A stretch of 64,000 nt of DNA from an uncultured candidate division Zixibacteria bacterium (GTDB lineage: Bacteria; Zixibacteria; MSB-5A5; UBA10806). Shown in pieces: positions 14,801 through 18,828 of the stretch (within the stretch, counting starts at the first letter, position 1; each line of letters begins with the position of its first letter). The translations under genes were made by a program, and so were the position numbers. The notes below the pieces were generated by a model, which saw nothing but the letters and a program-made list of their open reading frames with translations, was not told where the DNA came from and did no database searches. Location of the stretch: assembly GCA_963801605.1 (NCBI GenBank), contig CAWDFP010000009.1, forward strand, positions 7,694-71,693, given 5' to 3'.

Positions 14801-16656
14801 ATGATAGGCAATATTCTAATTCCAATAATCTGGGCAGGCGGCTTGTTGAGTCTGGCGATGCTATGGCTCGAACCGAAAAAGCAAGACCGGAGCTGTTTTT
14901 CCCGGCGGCCGGTTTCCTGGGCCTGGCAATCTATGGCCTGGGGTCTAATAACGCCTTATCTCCCGGTATTTTTATGGGCATTACTTATGCTGTTTGCGGT
15001 ATCATCTGTCTGGTATATTTATAAAGCGCATGTGATTCATAGGCTTATATCCGTCGTCAAGATTCATCCGCTTATCACCGTAATTATTACCTTTTTACTG
15101 TTTTGGTTTTCGCTGGCTGCGCTATCCTATCCCGGTCACTATCGATTCGCTCTATTTTCACCTGGGATTGTCGAAGCATTATGCAAAGGCCGGCGAGATA
15201 TTTTTTACCGAGGGGAATCTTTTTTCGGCCGCGCCTAGAACAATGGAAATGATTATTACTGCTTTTTATTCTATGGGACTGGAGCGCGCCGGGCAGTTTT
15301 TCGTGATGCTCATAGCCGCTATTTTCATCTGGGCTGTCTGGCAGCGAGCCCGCTCGTTTGGCGGCGATGGTAAAATCTCTGCCCTGATGATTCTAACTGT
15401 CCCGATATTCACAGCTCAAGCTATTTGCTCCAAGAATGATTTCCTGCTCTGGGGTTTGTGTTTTTTCGCGATTTGTAAGTCTTGGGATTTCATGCAAAAT
15501 AGCAAAATAAGTGATCTCGTCTGGGCTGGAATAGGTGCCGGGATGGCAGCCGGAACCAAGGCTATCGGTTTGGCGCTTTACGCTCCCTTGGCACTTCTAA
15601 TATTGTATAATATTATTTTGGGGAAATATCGTATTCGCCATTTCGCTTATTTTTCCGTTGCTTTTCTTTTGCTTTGCTCCCCCTGGTATCTATACTCCTG
15701 GATAATTACGGCAAATCCATTCTATCCGTTTTTTAACAGCATTTTTCACTCGCCATACTTCCCCGCGGCCTATGAAAGTTTCAATAATGAGATTGCCATT
15801 AAGACTGTAGAGAAAAGTATTTTGAGCATTTTCAGCTCTCCCTTTAAACTGATCTTCTAGCCCGATCTATATGATGGACGCCTCGGATTCGCCATTATTC
15901 TCTTTCCGGCCTTGCTATTGTTTGTGCGCAAAATACCATCGGGCATCAAGACCCTGGGATGGAATTTCTTTTATGTTTTATCCAATCTGGTTTTTCGGTT
16001 TTGCTTATGCCCGCTTCCTCCTGCCGATCTATCGGCCCTATCTATCGCCGGCTCATTTCTGGTTCTTGCAATATGCAGGGAAAACAAGCTCCTAAAAATT
16101 ACAATATTGGCATCGCTAATCATCGCCCTTTTACTGCCATTGCCTGCGCTCGTTCGCGACATGTCTCCCAGGATAAAATCTGTTATTTATGGTGAGTCAA
16201 AGTATGAATTTCTTTCTCGTTTGGAGACTATGAATACCTATCAAACTCACAGCGCAATCACATACAAACAATTCCTGTATCTCGATGCCTGGAAATACCT
16301 CAATCAAAACTCTCCTTCTGATTCCAGAATAGGCATCCTGACATCGTTTGGAACCAGAGCCGATGGCTACTATCTTGATCGTAATTTTATCTATCTCAAT
16401 CCCTCGGAACAACTCGAGTACAATTTTGCAAAATTGCGGGATTCGGCTGAGATAGCGGAAACACTTAAGGCTTTAAAAATTAACTATATCGTGATCGATT
16501 CGTACGGTGGCTAAAGGAGTTTTCCGAAACGTTCCGATTGGTCGCACTATCCTAATTTTGAGCTATTTGGCGATGGCGTCAAAGCACTATTAATTTTTGC
16601 AATTCCCGTAGCAGCCCGTCTTTTCAGATTCTCGCTACAAAATCTACAAAATATAA
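14801..16656 (+). CDS. Polytopic membrane protein, GT-C-like, frameshifted
   Basis: Many TM segments, DSLYFHL(x)LSK-like loop, KND, GMAAGTK, PWYLYSWIITANPFYPF; ends KIYKI* at 16656. Confidence 0.55.
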
Positions 16657-16688
16657 ACCCATCCCCCGCGCCGCAGTTAGGGGATGGG
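16648..16688 (-). terminator. Rho-independent terminator with minus-strand polarity
   Basis: 9-bp stem CCCATCCCC/GGGGATGGG (16658-16688); minus strand continues UUUAUAUUUU, plus strand has no U-tract. Confidence 0.7.
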
Positions 16689-16803
16689 TCCCAGGAGGAA
16701 GGTACGTCACCGTATCTCATTGCCTTATCTCGGCTTATCATCATCGGCTGTTCGGGCCGGGAAGCTATTCGAAGGCTCTTTCGAGTCCTCTACCTTTTCC
16801 AGA
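16650..16803 (-). ncRNA. Candidate structured small RNA (~150 nt), no family recognised
   Basis: Bounded by a sigma54-like promoter and a terminator whose U-tract is on the minus strand; contains a GAAA-tetraloop hairpin, a GCC/GGC hairpin and 5'/3' closing complementarity; no RBS-led ORF inside. Confidence 0.5.
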
Positions 16804-16813
16804 ACTATAATAA

Positions 16814-16829
16814 AGCAGTTGGTGTGCCA
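16814..16829 (-). promoter_or_regulatory. sigma54 (-24/-12) promoter
   Basis: Minus strand TGGCACACCAACTGCT: GG-N10-GC, close to consensus TGGCACG-N4-TTGCW; predicted +1 near 16803. Confidence 0.6.
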
Positions 16830-16928
16830 TCCTCGTTAAAATAGACTGGACTTTGAGAATACATGTAATCTCCATGTTTTCAATGAGATATAAGCGTTGG
16901 TAGTTTTCAGGCCCCTTTGCTTGCCCGA

Positions 16929-16937
16929 TGTGGATAA
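16929..16937 (-). promoter_or_regulatory. Perfect DnaA box upstream of the dcw promoter
   Basis: TGTGGATAA, i.e. TTATCCACA on the minus strand, intergenic. Confidence 0.55.
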
Positions 16938-17019
16938 CTCGAAATTATGGGAATCTTCCCCCAATGTATAGCCCTATGACAATATAGTGTAATGATCTAC
17001 GTCAATAACTAAATTTTTC

Positions 17020-17072
17020 TTGACTCCAATGGTAAAAAGTGGCACTATATGGGAAAATGTGGGTGAAGAGGG
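17020..17072 (+). promoter_or_regulatory. dcw promoter overlapped by MraZ-binding direct repeats
   Basis: TTGACT(17020-25)-17-CACTAT(17043-48); RTGG repeats at exact 10-bp spacing at 17029, 17039, 17049, 17059, plus AGGG at 17069. Confidence 0.8.
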
Positions 17073-17077
17073 TTTAA

Positions 17078-17521
17078 TTGTTCACGTTCAAAGGTACTTA
17101 CAACTATTCAATCGACCATAAGGGTCGTCTAAGCGTACCGTTAAATTCAGGGATAAGACCGATATCGCCAGCCGGTGAGCATTACGTAATCGCGCGAGGC
17201 TTTGAGGGTTGTCTCTATGTTTATCCGCGCGAGGCCTGGACGCAGGTGGAGGAGAAATTGTCGGCCCTGAAGACCATTTCCGATCCGCATGCGCGCTTTT
17301 TCGTAAGAACCCTTCTCTCCAATGCCGCCGATCCAAAGATCGATAAGTTGGGCAGGATTATGATTCCCCAGAATCTGCTCGATCTGGCAGGTATTAAAAA
17401 GGACGTAGTTGTACGAGGAGTATTGGAAAAGATCGAAATCTGGGATCCGGAAATTCTCAAGAAGTATGAAGAGAGCCAGCCGGATTCCTATGAAGATGTG
17501 GCGAAGCAGCTTCTGATTTAG
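17078..17521 (+). CDS. mraZ: Division/cell wall cluster transcriptional repressor MraZ
   Basis: FKGTYNYSIDHKGRLSVP, IDKLGRIMIP, KIEIWD. Confidence 0.95.
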   Translation: MFTFKGTYNYSIDHKGRLSVPLNSGIRPISPAGEHYVIARGFEGCLYVYPREAWTQVEEKLSALKTISDPHARFFVRTLLSNAADPKIDKLGRIMIPQNLLDLAGIKKDVVVRGVLEKIEIWDPEILKKYEESQPDSYEDVAKQLLI

Positions 17522-17522
17522 C

Positions 17523-18828
<1,306 letters not shown>

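Follow-up and report, generated by a model that had tools for sequence, protein, structure and literature searches.

A candidate sigma-54-dependent small RNA transcribed from an orphaned promoter divergent from mraZ in Zixibacteria

What becomes of a promoter when the gene that it served is lost? The question is raised by a 64-kb stretch of contig CAWDFP010000009.1 from an uncultured Zixibacteria bacterium (hereafter the window, meaning the whole of the stretch analyzed), in which a sigma-54-type promoter at 16814-16829 on the minus strand faces away from mraZ (17078-17521, plus strand) and toward a predicted intrinsic terminator a short distance away. A first-pass annotation of the window had proposed that these two signals delimit a lineage-specific structured small RNA (sRNA) of about 150 nucleotides (nt), possibly a protein sponge. 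Comparison with related genomes retains the proposed sRNA and discards the sponge, and it brings out two aspects that had been missed, namely, that the promoter appears to have originally served a peptidase-C25 gene lost in this lineage and that the conserved, presumably functional part of the RNA is its 3' domain (16718-16645). The interpretation favored here, to which we attach about an even chance of being correct, is that the orphaned promoter drives a lineage-restricted, sigma-54-dependent, probably Hfq-independent noncoding sRNA of about 155 nt, with predicted 5' and 3' ends near 16803 and 16648, respectively, on the minus strand.

The promoter belongs to a family-wide module

The promoter, TGGCACACCAACTGCT, has the form TGGCAC-N5-CTGCT, with GG at -25/-24 and GC at -13/-12, and fits the sigma-54 consensus TGGCAC-N5-TTGCW with a single deviation, C for T at -15. 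It is the sole match to TGGCAC-N5-YTGCW within the 64 kb, where 0.07 matches are expected; at least one match occurred in 7 of 100 shuffles of the window. The GC at -13/-12 puts the predicted transcription start near 16803 on the minus strand, exactly as first proposed, and some 279 nt separate the promoter from the start region of mraZ.

To what gene such a promoter is normally attached can be read from the relatives. The mraZ gene, with 1.5-kb flanks, was taken from all 14 genomes of the family, MraZ being identified by homology in each of them (14/14), and the strand divergent from mraZ was read. Divergent from mraZ, an element of the form (T/C)GGCA(C/T)-N5-TTGC(A/T) is present in each of the 11 genomes that the family has outside the genus of the window. 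Its distance to the start region of mraZ is about 279 nt in seven of these loci, as in the window, and about 462 nt in the four loci of genus g4. Each of these 11 promoters is followed, after 45 to 60 nt, by a G-rich ribosome-binding site and then by an open reading frame (ORF) with a signal peptide. The only one of the 11 ORFs that was scanned for domains, that of locus L021, matches Peptidase_C25 (1e-9) and Propeptide_C25 (7.6e-9), and the remaining divergent ORFs are visibly homologous to it in their translations.

The promoters share an upstream companion. About 115 to 135 nt upstream of the promoter, an inverted repeat of the TATGGGA-N6-TCCCATA type is present in all 11 family loci and also in loci L033 and L034. 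In genus g4, this palindrome is displaced together with the promoter and not with mraZ; because its distance to the promoter is fixed where the distance to mraZ differs, it is most likely the enhancer site of a cognate activator. The window retains it as the imperfect palindrome TTGGGGGAAGATTCCCATA (16946-16964, no strand assigned), a candidate binding site for a bacterial enhancer-binding protein, about 115 to 135 nt upstream of the sigma-54 promoter. Judged by its homology to this family-wide promoter-plus-palindrome module, the promoter in the window is in all likelihood genuine and old.

Both elements of the module thus persist in the window, although the peptidase-C25 gene is absent from its assembly (G000; 3.06 Mb in 14 contigs, 86.9% complete). 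A tblastn search of G000 with 12 N-terminal fragments yielded no orthologue of the peptidase, only paralogues of 19 to 25% identity on other contigs. Two further genomes of the same genus differ from G000 and from each other in this respect. In G002, neither the promoter nor the peptidase gene was found at the locus, and an unrelated gene adjoins mraZ. In loci of the G002 lineage (L018 and L037), the promoter is gone, and no such palindrome was seen in the upstream sequence read; thus, the module can be lost once the gene is gone. In G001, the peptidase gene is kept, and a run of 312 N's, probably a scaffold gap, separates it from the mraZ region.

The G001 locus (L016/L002, G001:C99) is the only one in the genus with the peptidase gene, and a further run of 25 N's lies inside that gene. 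The longer N run falls exactly where a homologue of the RNA, in the form of a long leader, would sit, and if the gap length is real, the start of the peptidase gene is about 245 nt farther from mraZ than in the other genera.

A search for the palindrome and promoter combination elsewhere in G000 returned one further case (C7:114430/114571), too few to define a regulon. In this locus (G000:C7:114430-115738; locus L065 327-1439), the palindrome ATGGGCATGTCCCCAT is found 140 nt upstream of CGGCATAATGGTTGCA, behind which come a ribosome-binding site and a gene for a 370-amino-acid lipoprotein without a Pfam match. Possibly, the lipoprotein gene is coregulated with the RNA by the same activator.

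The 3' domain and the promoter core are conserved

Which part of the region behind the promoter is maintained can be judged from close relatives that share its layout. A metagenome scan with MraZ yielded 15 loci, two of which, L029 (MraZ 91% identical) and L030 (88% identical), share the new synteny of the window; the identity ranges given here cover the three pairwise comparisons among the window, L029, and L030. The 3' domain of the predicted RNA (16645-16718, minus strand) is ultra-conserved, at 97% identity, with 72 of 74 positions identical in every pair. By comparison, the 5' body (16719-16803, minus strand), which holds a GNRA-loop hairpin, a GCC hairpin, and two GAUAAG motifs, is fast evolving, with 42 to 65% identity, and the third codon positions of mraZ are 54 to 64% identical. 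The 3' block is even more constrained than the neighboring coding sequence, the adjacent 3' end of the plus-strand gene (16520-16644) being only 74 to 78% identical.

The promoter core is also kept, as the first-pass annotation had expected of a GG-N10-GC element: the promoter reads TGGCAC...CTGCT in the window, TGGCAC...ATGCT in L030, and GGGCAT...ATGCT in L029, so that GGCA and TGCT occur in all three, and the three-way identity around the core is 27 to 43%. The length from promoter to terminator, 159, 156, and 159 nt in the three homologues, hardly varies. By these comparisons, the promoter core and the 3' block are under strong purifying selection, and the 5' 85 nt behave as neutral sequence of constrained length.

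Public sequencing runs provide additional homologues; a search for such runs listed 20 of DNA, all with small shares, and none of RNA. Contigs of four of the DNA runs (X1, X2, X5, and X6) were aligned to the window at 80% likeness, and those of three (X1, X2, and X6) align through the 3' block. One X1 contig spans the whole of the 1200-nt region compared; it shows 113 differences from the window as well as 15 gaps, and two changes in the 3' block are among the differences listed. The X2 contig aligns over 16539-16717 and continues with 290 unlike letters against 293 in the window; similarly, the X6 contig aligns over 16536-16749 and continues with 175 unlike letters against 176. X5 contributed small pieces over mraZ only.

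The distribution of the 3' block is narrow. It is single copy in G000, was not found by DNA search in 23 other genomes of the order (best match, E 0.0019, 35 nt at 83%), and was not found with a covariance model of the block (R1) in 150 genomes of the class. Matches to a 20-nt core of the block in a Phenylobacterium metagenome-assembled genome and in Actinomyces denticolens are presumably chance matches of a GC-rich 20-mer.

Another short invariant stretch was noticed next to the promoter. The 9-nt sequence GTCTATTTT (16840-16848, minus strand), located 11 nt upstream from the -24 element, does not vary among the window, L029, and L030, whereas the gene-linked promoters in other genera do not retain it; possibly, it is a bend or an IHF-type site particular to the orphan promoter.

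A strong predicted terminator meets the convergent gene

The predicted RNA ends in an intrinsic terminator (16648-16690, minus strand) that consists of a 12-pair stem (10 of the pairs Watson-Crick), an 11-nt loop region, and the tail UAUAUUUU, with a folding energy of -22.9 kcal/mol. The hairpin itself (16690-16656) combines the 10 Watson-Crick pairs with flanking G.U pairs; the stem had been described as one of 9 bp, which understates it, and the tail is, as had been recognized, T-rich on the minus strand only. L029 and L030 show no change in either the stem or the loop, and the differences listed for the X1 contig include a loop change at 16673 and, at 16656, the conversion of a G.U pair at the base of the stem to G-C. 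Across G000, 41 hairpins of at most -18 kcal/mol precede T-tracts; shuffles yielded 6, and a downstream control yielded 14. The organism employs canonical intrinsic terminators, and given this enrichment, reading the element in the window as a terminator is reasonable.

The gene on the other side of the terminator is convergent and overlaps it. A piece of this plus-strand gene (15168-15860) matches PMT_2, and its TAA stop (16654-16656, plus strand) is located inside the A-tract opposite the U-tract of the RNA. The window copy of the PMT_2-type glycosyltransferase gene is frame-broken, and the stop was assigned by homology: the intact glycosyltransferase frames of L029 and L030 end in ...RYKIY(Q/K)I* at the position homologous to 16654-16656. 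The earlier observation that a plus-strand gene stops right beside the terminator is thereby borne out.

Folding, coding potential, and a candidate seed

All the sequence features on which the first-pass annotation had built its case are indeed present, namely, the GAGGACUC-GAAA-GAGCCUUC hairpin at 16790-16771, the GCC-GAGAUAA-GGC hairpin at 16734-16722, the sequence UACCUUCCUCC at 16704-16694, about 110 nt beyond the promoter region, and three GAUA(A/C)G motifs. The description as a structured RNA of about 150 nt, however, does not hold for the 5' 85 nt, which contain both hairpins and two of the motifs. This part evolves neutrally and without covariation, and the fold of 16805-16645 is no better than that of shuffled sequences (minimum free energy of -49.5 versus -46.95 +/- 3.87; z, -0.66; 51 of 200 shuffles as good). 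The suggested pairing of the 3' sequence back to the 5' end did not hold up either, being no better than that of random 40-mers of this genome with the same 16-mer (background fractions of 0.29, 0.16, and 0.10). The sole hint of structure in the body comes from the X1 contig, in which positions 16789 and 16772 of the GNRA hairpin at 16790-16771 show a compensatory change from A-U to G-C; in the same contig, a change at 16788 turns a G.U pair into A-U.

The three motifs fare no better. Only AGAUACG, which lies in the 3' block, is invariant, whereas the first two change in L029, L030, X1, and X6. Because the motif-bearing 5' part evolves at the neutral rate and the repeated motif is not kept in the homologues, the protein-sponge idea fails.

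The conserved block presents a simpler picture. Folded alone, it gives, from 5' to 3', a small GNRA hairpin, then the stretch CCUUCCUCCU, and finally the terminator. The hairpin, UACG-GUGA-CGUA (16703-16714, minus strand), has four pairs and a GNRA loop and was obtained both by RNAalifold and by folding the domain alone; in L030, one of its G-C pairs is changed to G.U. It is outcompeted in the full-length folds of L029 and L030, with a pair probability of 0.02 to 0.04. The stretch CCUUCCUCCU (16693-16702, minus strand) is a run of pyrimidines, invariant in the three sequences and complementary to Shine-Dalgarno sequences, and is a candidate seed for pairing with mRNAs.

The region appears to be noncoding, as originally stated: no start-led ORF is conserved on either strand, and in L029 and L030, the frame that runs through the block on the minus strand lacks an in-frame start. 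Two candidate ORFs were rejected, a minus-strand ORF of 65 amino acids (16744-16547) for want of a conserved start and a plus-strand ORF from 16684 because its ends are unequal among the homologues. A cis-regulatory leader, attenuator, or riboswitch was rejected as well, given that the next gene is convergent and that the body is 42 to 65% identical without covariation. The failure of the first-pass annotation to place the RNA in a known family is corroborated by Rfam, which gave 0 matches at the gathering score over the whole window and 4 spurious ones, far below the cutoffs, at E<=10 over 16400-17150. In the absence of a covariance-model match to known families, the RNA would represent a new family of a known kind, the sigma-54-dependent sRNAs.

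The purine-rich 5' end of the predicted RNA (GTTCTGGA...) resembles the ribosome-binding region of the ancestral arrangement, for example, that of L033 (GTTCTGGAGGGG). The resemblance hints that the 5' end of the RNA is a remnant of the old leader.

A scenario for the origin and action of the RNA

The sequence of events suggested by these comparisons is as follows. The ancestral state would have been a palindrome and a sigma-54 promoter divergent from mraZ that drove the gene for a secreted peptidase of the C25 (gingipain) type. In a lineage below the rank of genus, the peptidase gene would have been lost and the glycosyltransferase gene would have come to converge on the site, with the palindrome and the promoter core retained. 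Transcription from the orphan promoter would now stop at the strong intrinsic terminator, and the function would reside in the 3' 74 nt, that is, in the small GNRA hairpin, CCUUCCUCCU, and the terminator hairpin, perhaps including the terminator loop. If transcribed and terminated as predicted, the RNA would act in trans, most likely through Hfq-independent pairing of the CU-rich stretch with the Shine-Dalgarno regions of target mRNAs, in response to whatever signal triggers the ancestral enhancer-binding protein. The seed may be masked in part by the purine-rich 5' end.

In its fullest form, the proposal is that of a datable birth of an sRNA by promoter orphaning: a regulatory module that outlived its gingipain-type protease gene was captured for a 155-nt RNA that puts the translation of other mRNAs under the old signal of the protease, in a phylum that would lack Hfq and is not known to have sRNAs. 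This broader claim is advanced tentatively, as somewhat more likely to be wrong than right.

Evidence against the RNA and alternative explanations

Several observations weigh against an sRNA. The most direct concerns sigma-54 itself, as the first-pass annotation had listed the lack of rpoN among the outcomes that would speak against its proposal: in G000, which is 86.9% complete, rpoN (TIGR02395, PF04552) was not found. This negative is outweighed by the presence of rpoN in 40 of the 40 relatives searched, both same-genus genomes included, and by the 14 strong Sigma54_activat loci of G000 itself (E 1e-39 to 1e-73; one split by a frameshift), and rpoN is probably located in an assembly gap. A relaxed sigma-54 pattern also has 42 matches genome-wide, several of them 20 to 60 nt before ORFs with a ribosome-binding site and a signal peptide. 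Hfq was likewise not found in G000, an incomplete genome.

The remaining difficulties concern the RNA. The covariation analysis recommended by the first-pass annotation, run with RNAalifold on the three homologues, found compensatory changes in 0 of 32 pairs, so that the constraint may act on the DNA rather than on the RNA. The full-length folds pair CCUUCCUCCU mostly with the purine-rich 5' end, with probabilities of about 0.6, 0.98, and 0.93 in the three homologues. A genome-wide target scan with RNAduplex, a crude method, gave a continuum with no outlier. The 5' body is unconstrained, and hence, about half of the RNA seems dispensable. At -15, within the -12 element, the three orphan promoters have C or A versus T in 13 of the 13 gene-linked ones (the 11 family loci plus L033 and L034), a change that may mark the onset of decay. 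Stem and loop are more strictly conserved than a plain terminator needs to be, which might be due to constraint on the DNA or on the opposite strand. Finally, the comparison comprises three full sequences and the run contigs.

Many of these points would be expected if the promoter were a relic with an idle short transcript and the block were kept to terminate or insulate the convergent units, its job being to end the glycosyltransferase transcript and/or to stop antisense entry into that gene and read-through into mraZ. We regard this explanation as unlikely, although it is the most serious competitor of the sRNA. The ancestral job of the promoter, transcription of the peptidase gene, is gone, and its -15 position has drifted in all three orphan copies; yet a useless promoter facing a gene should decay, and the GG/GC core and the palindrome survive at a divergence at which neutral sites are 42 to 65% identical. 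In the G002 lineage, the promoter has vanished. Termination of the convergent gene would accord with the plus-strand stop codon inside the A-tract of the terminator, but the U-tract is on the minus strand only, and a terminator requires neither an invariant loop nor the 28 invariant nt on its promoter-proximal side, both of which are kept. The neutral 5' body, the fold z-score of -0.66, and the lack of a target in the duplex scan of the genome all speak for an idle transcript.

An improbable variant is a conditional antisense regulator, in which the terminator is leaky or regulated, sigma-54-dependent read-through is antisense to the glycosyltransferase operon, and the 3' block acts as the gate. 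The convergent layout, in which no spacer sets the terminator apart from the plus-strand stop codon, would suit such a device, and the predicted pairing of the purine-rich 5' end with the CU-rich stretch (probability of 0.6 to 0.99) could compete with other folds. The hairpin is very stable, however, at -22.9 kcal/mol, none of the three homologues has a predicted antiterminator pairing that involves the arms of the hairpin, and the 5' body, which would have to be the sensor, is not conserved.

Least probable of all is an element unrelated to the promoter that acts at the DNA level (a protein-binding or recombination site) or on the plus strand (a 3'-untranslated-region structure plus an AGGAGG for a small ORF), since, even though conservation extends over every base, loop included, and a perfect AGGAGGAAGG comes after the hairpin on the plus strand, no ATG, GTG, or TTG lies within 15 nt after the AGGAGG, the downstream frames end differently (51, 19, and 22 amino acids from an internal ATG, with unequal stop-to-stop frames), the single-copy block, absent from the other genomes searched, is not a repeat or the end of a mobile element, and its flanks, both diverged to neutral levels, do not mark a recent insertion boundary.

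Relation to known regulatory RNAs

The sRNA interpretation places the locus among several known systems. Qrr, CrcZ, and Pxr are sigma-54-dependent sRNAs. GlmY/GlmZ of Enterobacteriaceae, which are sigma-54 dependent (PMC3045617), and an RpoN-dependent flagellar sRNA of Campylobacter jejuni (PMC11187230) belong here as well, and Pxr of Myxococcus is the subject of a report whose abstract is silent on sigma-54 (PMC5568312). The candidate described here shares with this group its predicted organization as a stand-alone noncoding gene that is preceded by a -24/-12 promoter and an upstream activator site and ends in an intrinsic terminator, as well as a conserved part that adjoins the terminator. 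Unlike GlmY/GlmZ, the C. jejuni sRNA, Pxr, Qrr, and CrcZ, it comes from a different phylum, the Zixibacteria, has no Rfam match in sequence or structure at E<=10, and comes from a genome (G000) in which Hfq was not found; furthermore, its promoter demonstrably derives from that of a protein-coding gene, and the RNA itself is a prediction.

In its presumed mode of action, the RNA would come closer to sRNAs of the RsaE/RoxS type, the C- or CU-rich, anti-Shine-Dalgarno sRNAs of Hfq-independent systems. Like these, it has an invariant pyrimidine stretch that is complementary to ribosome-binding sites and that lies between hairpins when the 3' domain is folded alone. Unlike these, it has one CU stretch instead of several C-rich loops, the stretch is mostly self-paired in the full-length folds, and no Rfam match links the two. 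CsrB/RsmZ and CrcZ are protein-sponge RNAs with repeated motifs, of which the three GAUA(A/C)G motifs of the window are reminiscent; in contrast to those of the sponges, however, the repeats are not kept in relatives, and known sponges carry far more than three copies.

The idea that sRNAs can emerge from decayed genes or orphaned regulatory regions stems from work on sRNA evolution in enterobacteria. The locus conforms to this idea in that a regulatory module has outlived its gene and is now predicted to give a short terminated transcript. It goes beyond the general idea in that the donor module, a sigma-54 promoter with its enhancer site, can be followed through an entire family and in that selection constrains the new 3' domain more strongly than the neighboring proteins. 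If expressed, the RNA would be an unusually clean natural case of the origin of an sRNA gene, with the donor promoter, the lost gene, and the selected part all delimited. It would further give the Zixibacteria their first candidate for a regulatory RNA, as far as can be told from a literature search not aimed at sRNAs of this phylum. The practical value is limited, as the organism is uncultured and only part of one genus carries the element. A more general lesson is that the eye-catching hairpins and repeats of the first reading turned out to be the neutral part, whereas the plain stretch before the terminator is the constrained one.

Sequence quality and a second conserved block

The assembly seems to contain small errors that bear on the reading of individual positions. 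Many 1-nt indels are present in the window, and the run contigs differ from it by 1-nt indels at 16502, 16517, 16531, 17139, and 17163. Genes are broken into several frames, among them rsmH (17523-18457) and the PMT_2-type gene (14801-16656), and residues 22 to 30 of MraZ (17139-17163) read LNSGIRPIS in the window and VKFRDK(T/S)DS in L029 and L030. Single-base indel errors probably also lower the completeness estimate of the assembly. Given such indels, single bases of the RNA may be wrong as well; for example, the X1 contig is without one base at 16740.

The 3' block has a counterpart on the other side of the promoter. The mraZ leader and promoter region (17018-17077, plus strand; 60 nt), the other ultra-conserved block of the intergenic region, is 98 to 100% identical in the pairwise comparisons among the window, L029, and L030. 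It contains TTGACT and three direct repeats of the GTGG(C/G)/ATGGG type, spaced about 10 nt apart, that resemble the operator repeats of MraZ in Escherichia coli.

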